In this document: piece after piece, positions 4,857-20,775 of the stretch | How positions within the stretch are numbered: the stretch's first letter is position 1 | How the letters are laid out: the number at the start of each line of letters is the position of its first letter | Source of the DNA: Escherichia phage HC6 | DNA: 47,726 nt | Reading direction: 5' to 3' (one strand) | Sequence record: OL362274.1 | Made by a program: the position numbers and the translations under genes | The notes under the pieces: generated by a model | The model's input: the letters and a program-made list of their open reading frames with translations, nothing else | What the model was told of the DNA's origin: nothing | Database searches by the model: none

Positions 4857-5787
4857 CGCCAGACTTCCGCAACCCCGCATATCACAGAGCCTGACAGACC
4901 CGTTAGGCGCTGCAACTCGCCTGTCAAAGATGGACAAGGTGATAACGCGCAAATACAAACAACTCAGGACTCGTTCGCTTGAGTTGTTTCGCACCATTCC
5001 GAGCAGTCAGACCAACGCAGAATCAAGTGGTCTGTATTTCTACGATTTCAGTAGTGCGCGTGCCGCTACGTTCATGGATGAGTTACAGGAGCTGGTTGAC
5101 GAGATTCTGCTGGAAGGTGATGATTTTAGTCATGGCAGGATGTGGGCCAATGTGTTCATTGGTGATGCGTATCAGGCGGGGACGCAGAAGGCTAACTCTG
5201 AGCTGTCAAGTCTTTCTCCGGTTTATGCTGAGCAGAGGCCGATTGCCACGATACTCTACAGTGAGCCTTATCTTAATCGACTGCAACTGGCGCACACAGC
5301 AGGATACTCAGACTGGCGCGGGTTGAGTGATTATTCCCGCCAGCAACTGGCATCTGTCATCATGGAAGGCATTGCGCGTGGTGCCAATCCTCGTGATGTT
5401 GAGGATGATATCGTCAAGCGTGTCGATGTATCTCACAGCTACGCAAAACAGATTGCGCAGACTGAAATAACCGGAACGCTGCGGCAGGCAAACAGACGGG
5501 AGGTTATTGAGGCGCGCGAAGAATTAGGTATTGAAACGGTTATGCTGTGGCAATCAGCATTAATGCGCACAACCCGCCAGACGCACGCGGCGAGACACGG
5601 ACTGTTTTACACGCCAGAAGAGATTGACACATTTTATAGCGAGAATGGCAATAGATATAATTGCCACTGCGCCCAGGTACCAACACTGTTAATGGATGGC
5701 AAGCCAGTCATTCTTGAGTCGTCACAGGAAAGGTTAGACAAGCAACGAGATGCGTGGCAATCGGCAAACAAAAAGCCCTCTAAGTGA
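4831..5787 (+). CDS. head morphogenesis protein (Mu F-like minor capsid protein)
   Basis: about 319 aa, resembles Mu F-like head morphogenesis proteins by recollection; start could be ATG 4831, 4837 (GGAAG RBS 6 nt upstream) or 4930; overlaps portal end. Confidence 0.75.
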
Positions 5788-15936: not shown

Positions 15937-16755
15937 ATGGCTGTCAGGTACGAAATAAACACAACTCCGGATGACGGGGAGGTTTTGCTTAGCGAAACCA
16001 TGTCAGCAGACTGGACTGCATTGCAGGTACAGATTGTGCCATTAAACTCTTCCGGCGGTTACGAGCCATTAACAAGCGGCTCTGTTTCCGTAATGGTATC
16101 TCCGTTCGCGTCTGGTGATTTCTGGATTGACGTCAACAATAATAATTATTATGGCGTGGCGCTGCGACTGAAAGTGATCAAGTCCCAAATGCCTGTTGGC
16201 ATTGCATCTCTGAAAGTCCTGGTATGGCGAGCTGCTACATCAGTGCCATCAAGTCAGGTTGTGGCGCAGTCCTACGCCGAACTTGCCAACAAGCAAGGTA
16301 AGTTATTCACCGCATCGCGTCGCGTGACTGGCGTTGCTGGCGGGGCTAACCTTGACAGCATTTTTATTACCGGTTCAAAGCAGGTCGTGTTTAATCAACG
16401 CATCATCGGATACACTGGCAAAGGTGTTGTAGCGTCAATCTACCGTGGGGCTGTGGTCACTGGAGGCACTGCCGCGGAGATTAATAATCCCAACGACATA
16501 ACGCCTCAGGCAGCTACGGCGCAGTTACTTACTGGTGCTACCGTGACAAACATTGGACAGCTGACGGTGGCAGCAACATACAGTGAGGGTAACGCATCGA
16601 ATCAGGGTCAGGGTAACTCGCAGGCGAAACTCGGCGAGCAGATTATCATGGCACCAAATACGACGTATTTGCTTCGCATAACATCACTGGACACTGCGGT
16701 GCAAAATATCAATGCATATGTGTCATGGTTTGAGGATGATACTTATCTGGCGTGA
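15937..16755 (+). CDS. putative virion structural protein
   Basis: 272 aa from ATG 15937; Gly/Thr/Val-rich beta-like composition; track start 15910 lies inside terminator. Confidence 0.45.
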   Translation: MAVRYEINTTPDDGEVLLSETMSADWTALQVQIVPLNSSGGYEPLTSGSVSVMVSPFASGDFWIDVNNNNYYGVALRLKVIKSQMPVGIASLKVLVWRAATSVPSSQVVAQSYAELANKQGKLFTASRRVTGVAGGANLDSIFITGSKQVVFNQRIIGYTGKGVVASIYRGAVVTGGTAAEINNPNDITPQAATAQLLTGATVTNIGQLTVAATYSEGNASNQGQGNSQAKLGEQIIMAPNTTYLLRITSLDTAVQNINAYVSWFEDDTYLA

Positions 16756-16761
16756 TAAAAC

Positions 16762-16784
16762 AAAGCCCCGTGAAGGGGCTTTGA
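16762..16784. terminator. bidirectional rho-independent terminator
   Basis: AAAGCCCC-gtgaa-GGGGCTTT between convergent genes. Confidence 0.6.
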
Positions 16785-16787
16785 TTG

Positions 16788-17327
16788 CTACAGACGCATA
16801 GGCATAACAACAATCTTCGCAGTCTCGCCAGATGGCGCACTAAGACAGCAAACTGCGGCATTTGTATTTCCATTCAGTTCAAATTTGACACAACAGAATT
16901 TAGGATTAAACAGCTTCGCCACTTTCTCAATATCAACAAGGTATCCAGCATTGAAGCCTATTTCCTCTGCTGCTTTCGTTTCCCTTGGTATAACGTGATC
17001 AATATCAGGGAATCGACCATCAATCTCTTCGCAGATACCAGCACCAACCATTGTGTCCATATGGCCGAAATGATAAGTAACGATTCCAGATTTTGTATCG
17101 ATGATCGCATGGTTATATTTCTTTTTCGGAGACTTGCTCACCTTTACAATCACACTTTCTGTCAGCTTATTGTCATGGCTGCCGCCAATAAATGCGCGAC
17201 GACCGTCAGTTGAGGCAATACGACCATCAGGCATGAAGCAGATGCCATTCAGGTAATACCGCACATCATTGCGAGCCTGAAATATTAATGCTGATTCAAG
17301 TAATAGTTTGCTTATTTTTAGTTTCAT
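16788..17327 (-). CDS. truncated DNA polymerase III beta sliding clamp (DnaN)-like protein
   Basis: 179 aa; DVRYYLNG, STDGRRA, DGRFPD, EIGFN and C-terminal VVMPMRL match E. coli DnaN domains II-III as I recall them; no domain I. Confidence 0.7.
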   Translation of the reverse strand: MKLKISKLLLESALIFQARNDVRYYLNGICFMPDGRIASTDGRRAFIGGSHDNKLTESVIVKVSKSPKKKYNHAIIDTKSGIVTYHFGHMDTMVGAGICEEIDGRFPDIDHVIPRETKAAEEIGFNAGYLVDIEKVAKLFNPKFCCVKFELNGNTNAAVCCLSAPSGETAKIVVMPMRL

Positions 17328-17500
17328 TTGATCACCTCAAATTTATATTTAGGCTCAGGCCATGTCGCGGTTCCGTCTTCCCATCGGACATATACTGGTT
17401 GAATTTTGTCCTCAATATCTACCTTCTCAACTACGCAAGGTAGCGGGTCATATTCTGGAATGATTATCTTATCTCCAACTTTTAAATCAGTTAATTCCAT
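17324..17500 (-). CDS. hypothetical small protein
   Basis: 58 aa (MELTDLKVGDKIIIPEYDPL...); ATGA overlaps at both ends; below track cutoff. Confidence 0.4.
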   Translation of the reverse strand: MELTDLKVGDKIIIPEYDPLPCVVEKVDIEDKIQPVYVRWEDGTATWPEPKYKFEVIK

Positions 17501-17673
17501 CACTTCACCTTAATCATGTGTTGTTTTGCAACCTTCAGGCATTCTTCAAAAATGCCGCCATTCTTAGCGCTCTGATTGCGCTTGTAATACTGAATTGCCA
17601 CATCAATTGCCATCTGGTCGATGTCAGGCAACTTGGTGCGAAGTTGTTTTTCAATGAATTGTTCTGGTGTCAT
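17500..17673 (-). CDS. hypothetical small protein
   Basis: 57 aa (MTPEQFIEKQLRTKLPDIDQ...); TAATG overlap with methyltransferase stop. Confidence 0.4.
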   Translation of the reverse strand: MTPEQFIEKQLRTKLPDIDQMAIDVAIQYYKRNQSAKNGGIFEECLKVAKQHMIKVK

Positions 17674-18473
17674 TAAACGGACCTCATGAATGCTTTAATG
17701 AATTCTTCTGCGACTTGTGGAACTATGGCATTACCATAACCGCGCAATCGTCCCACTCTTGCGGATACCCCATGAGTTGCCTCGCAAAATCCGCCTGGTA
17801 TGACTCTAGTTTCCTTATCTGCTCCATGGTTGGGTTTCCATGAATCCCATAAACATGAAGCCACATCTGGCGATAAAGAGTATCGTTCCTGAATTTCCCG
17901 TCCTTTCTGTAAAATGACTTGCTGAGATTCCCGTAATCCTTCCATCCTCGCGCCGTTGGTGTCGCCCATCCTCGCGCCAAAGATGATTCTTTTCCTTTCC
18001 TGTGGAGAGCCGACGCTGCAAGCTGGCAATACTGACGCCCCGCAGGCGTAGCCTTTGTCTTCCAGGTTAAGGAATACAAAATCGAGCCAGTGCTTCCCAA
18101 TTGCTGCTGCAACCTGCTCTCCAAACAGCAATTCAGGCTTGCACTCTCTGATGAGCCTGAGAAATGCTGGGGCAAGGTGTCGATCGTCGTCAAATCCGAG
18201 AGACTTACCGGCAACGCTAAACGGCTGGCAAGGTGGTGATCCTGTCCAGAGTCGAGTGCTTTCTGGTATTCCTGCCAGCTGGAGTGCAAGGGGCCACCCT
18301 CCGATTCCGGCAAAGAAGTGACACTGTGTAAATCCTTCCAGGTCTGAAGGGGTGACTTCGGTGATTGATCGTTCATCGACATATCCGTAAGGAATTAGTT
18401 TATTGTTAATTAATTCACGCAGCCATGCCGCTGCGCCCTTGTCCCACTCATTGTAATAGTGGACCATCATCAC
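17673..18473 (-). CDS. DNA (cytosine-5)-methyltransferase, compact
   Basis: 266 aa; FFAGIGG (motif I), PPCQPFS (motif IV), GEQV (motif VI), QERKR (motif VIII), GNAIV (motif X); little room for a target-recognition domain. Confidence 0.75.
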   Translation of the reverse strand: MMMVHYYNEWDKGAAAWLRELINNKLIPYGYVDERSITEVTPSDLEGFTQCHFFAGIGGWPLALQLAGIPESTRLWTGSPPCQPFSVAGKSLGFDDDRHLAPAFLRLIRECKPELLFGEQVAAAIGKHWLDFVFLNLEDKGYACGASVLPACSVGSPQERKRIIFGARMGDTNGARMEGLRESQQVILQKGREIQERYSLSPDVASCLWDSWKPNHGADKETRVIPGGFCEATHGVSARVGRLRGYGNAIVPQVAEEFIKAFMRSV

Positions 18474-19279
18474 ATCTTCTCCAGAATTGCCATCACCTCG
18501 TGAATATCAGCAACAGGAATCTTGATAAACTCCTCATTCTCTGCCACTACATGACCAGCAAGAAGAATAACGTGGTCAGCTGGCTTCAGTAACTCAATCA
18601 GTCGGTCTACTGGCTTAATCTTTTTCGACTTAAGCACCTTCGCCGTTACCTTATCCTTGCCTTGCGCCTTCGCTTCTTCGACTGCCTCGTCGATAACTTT
18701 AACCGCATCATCGCCATGTTCGCGAGTTACTGCTACGGCATTTGCATAGCTGATTTGCCCTGCACTGATTCGCGCTTTTACTTCGGCTGGCACATCACCC
18801 AGTGACAGGTGCATCTGCACGTCAGATACTGAACGGCCGACCTTTTTGGCGATTTCCTCATTGGTCCAGCCAAAGCCTTTCAGTCGCGTGTAAGCCTTTG
18901 CGCGCTCAAATGGGTCAAGCTGCTTACCCTGACTGGATGACACCATGAAGGCAATTTTATCGGCCTCATCGCCAGTGAAATCCTTACACTCAATACGAAC
19001 GATTGGTGCGCCGCGCTCAATGGCACGCAATGCGCCTAGATAGCGATGCTGACCATCAAGAATGCGGATTCCCTTCTCATCAGGAATAACTGTTAATGCT
19101 GGTAATGGCTGACCTGATTCCCAGCACTGCGCGAAATACTCCACATGCTGCTCGTCTGCTTCGCGGATGTTGTATCCCGGCTCCAGATAGATTTGCTCCA
19201 CTGGCACGAGATAGGTTTTGTTAACAGCGATTCCGTTGCGCGTTTCTTTGTCTGAATAGATTTTGCTAAGTGTTTTCAT
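18470..19279 (-). CDS. ParB-like nuclease domain protein
   Basis: 269 aa from ATG 19279; ILDGQHRY ParB/sulfiredoxin-type motif plus HTH-like EIAKKVGRSVSDV. Confidence 0.7.
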   Translation of the reverse strand: MKTLSKIYSDKETRNGIAVNKTYLVPVEQIYLEPGYNIREADEQHVEYFAQCWESGQPLPALTVIPDEKGIRILDGQHRYLGALRAIERGAPIVRIECKDFTGDEADKIAFMVSSSQGKQLDPFERAKAYTRLKGFGWTNEEIAKKVGRSVSDVQMHLSLGDVPAEVKARISAGQISYANAVAVTREHGDDAVKVIDEAVEEAKAQGKDKVTAKVLKSKKIKPVDRLIELLKPADHVILLAGHVVAENEEFIKIPVADIHEVMAILEKM

Positions 19280-19280
19280 A

Positions 19281-19472
19281 TCATTCACCACTTTCTTCCA
19301 ATAATTGCTCGTAATATGCGACGTACTCATTAGCAAGATGGTACAGGCGCTCAGCAGACTTGCGTTCTGCATTACTTAAGTCACCAATAGACTCAATGTT
19401 GCCAATTGCATCAACACAATCATTGAAGTCTTGCTCTGTATTACGAAATCGACAGTAGGACATGTTTGCCAT
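19281..19472 (-). CDS. hypothetical small protein
   Basis: 63 aa, acidic. Confidence 0.5.
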   Translation of the reverse strand: MANMSYCRFRNTEQDFNDCVDAIGNIESIGDLSNAERKSAERLYHLANEYVAYYEQLLEESGE

Positions 19473-19474
19473 GA

Positions 19475-20104
19475 TTAATCCTCATCACCAGAATTAGCAA
19501 TATCGTAAAACTGACCGTAGGTTATCTGCTTAAAGTTATCAGGTATCGTTACCTGTCCGTGACCTTCATCTTTTGTATTTGGCACAGCAAAAATCAAACA
19601 ATCATCCTTTTTCGGGTGTTTGCCTCCATAAGTAGAAAGCATTGCAAAACCAAATCCGCGACCAGATTGCTCACCAATGCCGGTACGTGCGATGCCATAA
19701 TGGTTAACAATGTAGTCCTTCCATTCTGGCAATAACTTTAATTTCTCGTTTGCCTCGCGCATCACTGCGTCCAGCTTTTTGTTGTATTCACGACCATCCT
19801 TTGTGTTTCCTTTCCCACGAACAATAACCACGCGCTGACCTTCCCAAAAATCTTCACGTTTTATTGTTACAGGGCATGGAAATTCAAATTTATTGCTCCA
19901 CGCAAAACTCTCAAGCAGGCCACCGCCAACAGCGCCCCAACTGCGCGTTGTGGTAAATGCGACAGCTCCAACCTTTTTCATTGCGTCACCGAGAATTTCA
20001 TTGCGGCGATTCTTGATGTCATCGTATGCGTCGATTAGTTTCTTAACATCATCACCTTCAACCATGTAATAATCATAATGTTTTGCGTTACTACTCATCT
20101 TCAT
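19475..20104 (-). CDS. hypothetical protein
   Basis: about 209 aa; first gene of minus-strand operon; start ATG 20104 or 20098 after GAGGTG; no motif recognised. Confidence 0.55.
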   Translation of the reverse strand: MKMSSNAKHYDYYMVEGDDVKKLIDAYDDIKNRRNEILGDAMKKVGAVAFTTTRSWGAVGGGLLESFAWSNKFEFPCPVTIKREDFWEGQRVVIVRGKGNTKDGREYNKKLDAVMREANEKLKLLPEWKDYIVNHYGIARTGIGEQSGRGFGFAMLSTYGGKHPKKDDCLIFAVPNTKDEGHGQVTIPDNFKQITYGQFYDIANSGDED

Positions 20105-20125
20105 CACCTCTAACATTTATTGTTG

Positions 20126-20185
20126 TTTCTACGTCACTAACTATAAACGCCACATCAATCTACGTCAACAGGAATATGCTAAAAT
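20126..20185. promoter_or_regulatory. divergent promoter region with paired TCTACGTCA motifs
   Basis: TTTCTACGTCAC and TCAATCTACGTCAACA followed by TAAAAT -10-like hexamer; between divergent genes 20104 and 20216. Confidence 0.45.
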
Positions 20186-20215
20186 CATGCTAATCAAACA
20201 ACAGGAGATTTAAAC

Positions 20216-20335
20216 ATGGGTTCAACCAACTCACCATCTCGTTCGCGCGCTACTGGCAACACAAAAACTGGCGGCAAAACTGGCGTGGTGAAGCCAAACG
20301 GCTCTACCCGTTCACCATCGCGCGGTAAAAAATAA
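20216..20335 (+). CDS. small basic peptide
   Basis: 39 aa (MGSTNSPSRSRATGNTKTGGKTGVVKPNGSTRSPSRGKK); AGGAG RBS; stop overlaps next ATG. Confidence 0.35.
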   Translation: MGSTNSPSRSRATGNTKTGGKTGVVKPNGSTRSPSRGKK

Positions 20336-20775
20336 TGTTCGGCGCAGATGTTGCCATCATGATCATGTATGTGCTTGGATTTGCCTGCACGGGCATGGTT
20401 GCGTTTCTGGTGTTCATTCCGGCAATGGTGATGTCTGTGTATCTTGGATGGGTGCTTGTTGATTCATTTCCCGCCGAATATCTGTATTACCTTGCGCAGT
20501 GTATGGTCTGGTTGTTTCCGGCTATTGCGCTGCGTAAAAGTACAAAGATGGCGCTCTGCGTGCTGACGATGAGCCTTTACGAATGGCTGGTTGCGATAGA
20601 GTCATTCGTATGGGAATTTATCACGCCTGTAGAAACGCCGCTTCATGCGCAGTACGCATTTATTATTATCGGCATCCATCTGTTCATCCTTTCCATCACT
20701 TTTAAATGGGGCGGCGAAATTGGACATTATTCTTGGCGTGGTTGCCATCGTTTTTTCGCTGATTCAAATCTATAA
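20335..20775 (+). CDS. polytopic membrane protein
   Basis: 146 aa with several hydrophobic segments. Confidence 0.55.
   Translation: MFGADVAIMIMYVLGFACTGMVAFLVFIPAMVMSVYLGWVLVDSFPAEYLYYLAQCMVWLFPAIALRKSTKMALCVLTMSLYEWLVAIESFVWEFITPVETPLHAQYAFIIIGIHLFILSITFKWGGEIGHYSWRGCHRFFADSNL

Follow-up and report, generated by a model that had tools for sequence, protein, structure and literature searches.

An EaC-family gene in a hypervariable slot behind a predicted sigma-70 promoter of a small lytic Escherichia phage: a candidate early accessory factor

EaC has carried its name since the PL operon of Salmonella phage P22 was sequenced, and its homologues occur on hundreds of clinical Klebsiella conjugative plasmids; in the databases and literature that we searched for EaC, DUF5420, the P22 ea genes and the phage relatives, no function is stated for the family. 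It has been reported that phage could not be recovered from a P22 prophage with an eaC-eaE deletion; this is uninformative in this respect, as a cassette upstream of xis would probably be polar on excision. In phage T7, gene 0.3 (Ocr) is the first-expressed anti-defence gene of a lytic phage. Here, we analysed an EaC gene on the minus strand of a 47,726-nt stretch of DNA from Escherichia phage HC6 (OL362274.1; the whole stretch is called the window below). The window corresponds to Escherichia phage 6947 (ON637251.1, 47,726 bp) rotated by 23 nt and with 6 mismatches, and GenBank coordinates equal window coordinates minus 23. The phage has no integrase and shows the layout of a T1-size siphovirus; the BASEL study treats this cluster as Skatevirus, O-antigen-dependent lytic small siphoviruses. 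An earlier note, made from the letters of the window, had described the gene as coding for an unknown protein that leads an accessory operon. We found that its family is known but uncharacterised and that the genomic setting is new and informative. The gene and its start signals are the following:

19475-20098, minus strand: EaC-family protein gene, 207 amino acids plus stop (open reading frame list, homology, ratio of nonsynonymous to synonymous substitution rates (dN/dS), AlphaFold)
20105-20110, minus strand: ribosome-binding site GAGGTG, 8 nt 5' of the ATG at 20098 (invariant in relatives with a different first open reading frame)
20140-20168, minus strand: predicted sigma-70-type promoter TTGACG-17 nt-TATAGT, the operon promoter (10 of 12 consensus matches)

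The protein is 70.4% identical to P22 EaC (gp25, YP_063720.1) over residues 1-203, 98% of the length (tblastn, E-value 8e-94), and 90-100% identical to proteins in 17 Skatevirus-like phage records, several of which are annotated as 'EaC protein'. It matched PHROG 2260, a group whose function is unannotated, over residues 11-208 (E 8.6e-59). By these similarities, the protein is a member of the EaC family (PHROG 2260). The earlier note had recognised no motif in it, and indeed Pfam and NCBIfam yielded no characterised domain, but 'unknown' was an overstatement for a protein this close to P22 EaC. Pfam also gave no match to anti-restriction families, and none of the defence families in PADLOC-DB was matched at E <= 0.1. 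The Pfam model DUF5420 (PF17457) was hit with 15.3 bits (E 0.018) over residues 84-144 only, which does not reach the gathering threshold of 26 bits. A profile built from the close homologues and searched against 1.84 billion representative proteins retrieved 95 clusters. Since 24 of 49 diverse full-length representatives retrieved in this way matched DUF5420 at E <= 1e-3 (best E 5.6e-23), EaC is a divergent enterobacterial branch of DUF5420, and several of the close homologues carry the NCBI name 'DUF5420 family protein'. Nearly all members in the 95 clusters are stand-alone, single-domain proteins of 190-210 residues. We also considered domain fusions as a clue to function, but in the few longer members, which are chimeric, the added part is a Tle3 fragment or an Ea22-like tail, which was uninformative.

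The open reading frame ends at position 19475 on the minus strand and is real, as the earlier note had it, but its length of 209 residues probably needs a small correction. From the first ATG (20116) the frame has 213 codons, and the ATG codons at 20104 and 20098 give proteins of 209 and 207 residues, respectively. The true start is most likely the ATG at 20098 (MSSNAKH..., 207 amino acids), which is favoured because the spacing of GAGGTG, the conservation of the leader, the starts of the homologues and the GenBank start all agree: the aligned homologues all open with MSxxxKxYDYY, and the record ON637251.1 annotates the same ATG. The DNA through GAGGTGATG is near-invariant in relatives whose first open reading frame differs, changes frame or stops after six 'MLEVM.' codons, which argues that the 'MLEVM' leader is 5' untranslated sequence and not coding. 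The protein contains both motifs that had been quoted for it: residues 71-77 are FEFPCPV and residues 147-163 are GRGFGFAMLSTYGGKHP (207-residue numbering). Among 13 distinct alleles from related phages (78 pairs), the median dN/dS was 0.058 with a range of 0.03-0.15; thus, this is a constrained, real coding gene under strong purifying selection. Its 23-kDa product has an isoelectric point (pI) of 6.45, with 31 Asp and Glu against 30 Lys and Arg residues. A search with Rfam matched no RNA family in 16500-20600.

In a promoter scan of the same interval, TTGACG-17-TATAGT was the top sigma-70 match. It is near-invariant in four relatives that carry different first genes, and a 26-nt stretch just 3' of it occurs in 58 viral contigs. 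The EaC gene is the first gene after this strong, near-consensus, conserved predicted promoter. That it is the promoter-proximal gene of a minus-strand operon, as had been claimed, is borne out by the promoter at 20168-20140 together with a terminator at 16783-16761.

The interval behind the promoter was surveyed in the 58 viral contigs with the conserved leader and in four annotated relatives, and the downstream gene for a ParB/KorB-like protein could be located in 56 of them. From the invariant ribosome-binding site to that gene, the distance ranges from 31 nt (an empty slot, in one relative) to 1,210 nt. The slot holds zero to three genes in at least 20 architectures, drawn from about ten small gene families, with the following occupants:

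32 loci: PHROG 1273
25 loci: 38-residue protein
14 loci: PHROG 8760 (63 residues)
9 loci: EaC
9 loci: 86-residue very acidic protein, PHROG 14587
Other occupants: several singletons

Some slots hold EaC alone; in others it is accompanied by the 63-residue protein, precedes PHROG 1273 or follows the acidic protein. The similarity between relatives breaks exactly at the start codon. Judged from these alignments, the slot (window 19281-20110) is a hypervariable site for cassettes, preceded by a strong promoter that stays the same. Because the slot is swappable and, in one relative, empty, EaC is accessory, and dispensable for this type of phage. The term 'accessory operon' of the earlier note therefore suits EaC, which occupies a variable slot and is carried by 17 of the 131 phage records that share the terminase, but it does not suit the ParB/KorB-like and clamp-like genes of the same operon, which are conserved. 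The acidic slot-mate (22 Asp and Glu, 3 Lys and Arg, pI 4.05) carries the label 'anti-restriction protein' in both RefSeq and PHROGs (locus L097, 2665-2943, minus strand); it had no match in Pfam, and we found no experiment behind the label. It is also present in HK446 and ECP1, and 42%-identical homologues occur in lambdoid phages.

Members of the family are found in phages of Enterobacterales, Vibrio and Aeromonas, both lytic and temperate. As in P22, EaC lies directly upstream of excisionase and/or integrase genes of several types in 39 of 68 prophage loci. A lambdoid phage has it directly after N, and a P2-like prophage carries it at the end of the early operon, behind a Dam methylase gene and immediately after the Toprim replicase gene, ahead of the portal gene. 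It opens an operon leading to bet, exo and ssb in a Providencia phage, and in an Aeromonas phage it is located between a helicase gene and genes for a 3'-phosphoadenosine-5'-phosphosulfate reductase-like protein, an HD protein, a C5 methylase and a nuclease. Full-length homologues (45-49% identity) were found on 531 PLSDB plasmids, of which 498 are predicted to be conjugative, mostly large MOBH/MPF_F plasmids of Klebsiella; this distribution implies a function independent of virion assembly, lysis and lysogeny. On these plasmids (for example NZ_CP061701.1, 244207-244821), the distance from the homologue to repB is about 12 kb, and small hypothetical genes, a RelE toxin gene and methylase genes surround the homologue. 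The large Klebsiella plasmids also carry a type IV-A-like CRISPR module. No constant neighbour or partner gene was seen across the loci compared.

An AlphaFold2 model computed from a 35-sequence alignment showed a mixed alpha/beta domain (predicted local distance difference test score (pLDDT) 86.8, predicted template modelling score 0.78). The structure-based search that the earlier note had proposed was run with this model and yielded no function: Foldseek found nothing in the PDB with an E-value better than 2.4, and a search of BFVD returned uncharacterised phage proteins only. The best structural matches were to quasi-RNA-recognition-motif or ferredoxin-like alpha-beta sandwich domains, where a sub-domain of 65-76 residues could be superimposed with a root-mean-square deviation of 2.3-3.0 Å. 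Sequence-profile searches of the PDB with a close and a diverse alignment also gave no match, the best hits (E 1.3 and E 0.034) being unrelated helical segments. On this evidence, the modelled fold appears to be without a characterised relative among the PDB structures and BFVD models searched. Homology to a housekeeping phage protein, which the earlier note had set against its own proposal, was found neither by sequence nor by structure searches.

Among 49 diverse members of the family, conservation of at least 90% is confined to Y10, R32, G159, P173, P186, Y194 and D199. Two signature motifs were kept in two alignments: the consensus RGKGNxKxGKxFN at residues 94-106 (RGKGNTKDGREYN in the window), modelled as a strand-loop-helix with pLDDT of 97-98, and the C-terminal TYGQFYD at residues 193-199. 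We tried to read the first of them as a P-loop (Walker A), but the loop VRGKGNTKDGR does not fit GxxxxGK[ST] and no P-loop family was matched. What the family conserves are glycines, prolines, aromatic residues and a basic loop, with no constellation of His, Asp, Glu or Cys residues; the lack of a conserved catalytic-type residue set suggests a binding protein rather than an enzyme.

The early position in unrelated elements, the swappable slot, the lack of a partner gene and of a catalytic set, the constraint on the sequence and the spread to plasmids lead us to prefer, tentatively, a reading in which EaC/DUF5420 proteins are stand-alone, non-enzymatic early accessory proteins that act on the host cell to favour the incoming mobile element. 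Host RNA polymerase would transcribe eaC first, from the strong sigma-70 promoter, once the DNA enters the cell, and the product would fold into a compact alpha/beta domain. It may then bind a host component or a phosphate-bearing ligand (a nucleotide or nucleic acid) through the RGKGNxKxGK loop and nearby conserved Arg and Tyr residues. Binding could neutralise or redirect a host function that limits the mobile element, either as part of host takeover or as counter-defence beyond classical restriction-modification. The binding, the identity of the target and the benefit to the phage are what we infer. The earlier note had called the protein a candidate effector; this is reasonable, but the note had argued from position alone, and a broad anti-restriction role is contradicted by plating data on a natural carrier, described below.

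Several points weigh against the preferred reading. The position in the slot amounts to guilt by association, and the 'anti-restriction' label of the acidic neighbour is a name only. With 207 residues and a near-neutral pI of 6.45, the protein exceeds typical DNA mimics and signal sponges in size and carries less charge than they do. The plasmid homologue appears to lie outside the immediate leading region: on pC39-334kb it is found at 244.2 kb and mobI-mobH-traD at 176-183 kb, so that it is about 68 kb from the mobI-mobH relaxase module. Finally, no benefit of EaC can be seen in the immunity panel of the BASEL collection, the only systematic one available, in which Bas79 carries a 90%-identical EaC and Bas78 has PHROG 1273 in the slot instead. 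In the published plating of whole phages (one replicate), the plaque counts of Bas79 fell from 1.4e8 to 1.4e7 with EcoKI, 8e4 with EcoCFT_I, 8e3 with EcoRI, 1e2 with EcoRV, 7e2 with EcoCFT_II and 9e3 with EcoPI. The six restriction-modification systems, of types I, II and III, thus restrict Bas79 10- to 10^6-fold, similar to the EaC-less Bas78. Old caused an about ten-fold loss for both phages, and RexAB, PifA, Fun/Z and Tin affected neither. Because Bas79 is restricted like Bas78, these data argue against a broad anti-restriction role, within a comparison limited to the defences in the panel.

Among the alternatives, the most probable, although still unlikely in our view, is that EaC binds nucleic acid as an accessory factor in the DNA metabolism of the phage or plasmid (replication, recombination or transcription) and is not aimed at the host. 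Less probable again is a competition or exclusion gene that would shield the infected or carrying cell from other phages or plasmids. The prophage copies at the int/att end, the P2-like prophage copy between replicase and portal, a position that we take to be the old/tin defence hotspot, and the plasmid copies among toxin-antitoxin, restriction-modification and methylase genes would all suit such a role. However, no PADLOC defence model was matched, the lambdoid and P2-like copies lie inside early operons with no obvious promoter of their own and should be repressed in lysogens, and in the phage studied here, which is strictly lytic, the gene comes first among the early genes. About as improbable, or slightly more so, is an enzyme acting on a nucleotide or small molecule, by destruction of an immune signal or modification of a metabolite, for which the Gly-rich loops would serve as a phosphate site; the short list of residues conserved to at least 90% contains no catalytic-type set of acidic, His or Cys residues, the loop misfits Walker A, and no enzyme family was matched by sequence or fold. 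A classical anti-restriction protein of the T7 Ocr or ArdA kind, either a DNA mimic or an inhibitor of restriction enzymes, would fit the first-expressed position, which is that of Ocr in T7, and the slot shared with the acidic protein labelled 'anti-restriction', but this reading is largely refuted by the balanced charge of EaC, which is not that of a DNA mimic, by the restriction of Bas79 by systems of all three types, and by the co-occurrence of EaC and the acidic protein in two relatives, which shows that they are not simple alternatives.

The preferred reading of a host-directed early accessory protein can be extended to a more specific one, which we consider possible but rather doubtful: EaC/DUF5420 proteins may be new-fold early effectors of lytic and temperate phages and of conjugative plasmids that sequester a protein or a nucleotide signal and thereby disarm a pathway of host immunity or stress response distinct from restriction-modification, and the slot may be a counter-defence island in which PHROG 1273, PHROG 14587 and PHROG 8760 are also anti-defence genes. 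Should EaC turn out to act in counter-defence, the repertoire of such factors would gain a new fold and a new type of anti-defence island would be indicated; otherwise it would be an ordinary accessory gene. The sister phages, with their invariant promoter and ribosome-binding site and differing mainly in the cassette, amount to a near-isogenic series, of which Bas78 and Bas79 have already been phenotyped.

The operon comprises seven tightly packed or overlapping minus-strand genes, coding in order for EaC, a 63-residue protein, a ParB/KorB-like protein, a C5 methylase, proteins of 57 and 59 residues and a clamp-like protein of 179 residues. Besides the EaC gene and its promoter, we assigned the following features:

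20128-20167 (copies at 20128-20136 and 20159-20167), minus strand: two exact copies of TGACGTAGA, 31 nt apart, a direct repeat partly conserved in relatives
19281-19472, minus strand: 63-residue protein, PHROG 8760, optional second member of the slot (PHROG match; 14 of 56 slots)
18470-19279, minus strand: ParB/KorB-like DNA-binding protein, in operon order the first gene that is conserved (Pfam HTH_ParB, E 2.4e-11; KorB, E 5.9e-06; PHROG 1033, E 7e-91)
17673-18470, minus strand: C5 cytosine DNA methyltransferase (Pfam DNA_methylase, E 3.8e-22)
16788-17327, minus strand: 179-residue protein similar to a portion of the beta sliding clamp, encoded at the end of the operon (TIGR00663 dnaN, E 1.1e-07; PHROG 3007, E 4.5e-58)
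16761-16783, minus strand: predicted strong intrinsic terminator that ends the operon, a 9-bp stem with 6 GC pairs followed by a T run (terminator scan; annotated as a terminator in phage Skate)

The TGACGTAGA copies bracket the promoter, one overlapping the -35 hexamer and the other lying just 3' of the -10 hexamer; the pair is possibly an operator, or a chance occurrence. In the 56 slots, the 63-residue protein is found beside EaC, beside the acidic protein or alone. The ParB/KorB-like protein, 97-99% identical among the relatives, is encoded here by a lytic phage, for which a need for partition is not obvious; it could act as a regulator of its own operon. The C5 methyltransferase gene is present in phage 6947 and Bas78 and absent from the 12 closest EaC-carrying viral contigs; by this pattern of presence and absence, it is a second variable cassette inside the same operon. 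Several unrelated phages and prophages likewise have a C5 or Dam methylase gene no more than a few kb from their EaC homologue. The 179-residue protein matches only positions 139-254 of the 367 in the dnaN model and is conserved across the relatives; its naming is inconsistent, either 'DNA polymerase III beta subunit' or, as PHROG 3007, 'RusA-like Holliday junction resolvase'.

Compared with the described systems, the protein of the window is closest to P22 EaC, with which it shares its length, its single domain and the absence of a partner gene, and both genes are early, are served by a promoter for host RNA polymerase and lie within a block of non-structural genes. The settings differ in that the P22 gene is the last of the long PL operon, directly before xis-int, whereas here the gene opens a short operon of a lytic, integrase-less phage and is followed by the ParB/KorB-like gene. 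In P22, an annotated C1-activated promoter inside eaC also drives the antisense RNA aI (4964-5486 of the P22 locus), which covers the 5' two-thirds of eaC and would lower the expression of eaC and of the genes downstream during the establishment of lysogeny; the lytic phage has no evident counterpart of this RNA. With respect to the DUF5420 model, the protein of the window differs in scoring below the cut-off, and DUF5420 is likewise without functional annotation. Unlike T7 Ocr, EaC is not acidic, has no similarity to it in sequence or fold, and leaves its natural carrier unprotected against the restriction systems. The likeness to T7 gene 0.3 is a functional analogy: both genes are promoter-proximal, transcribed by the host polymerase, accessory and swapped among relatives.
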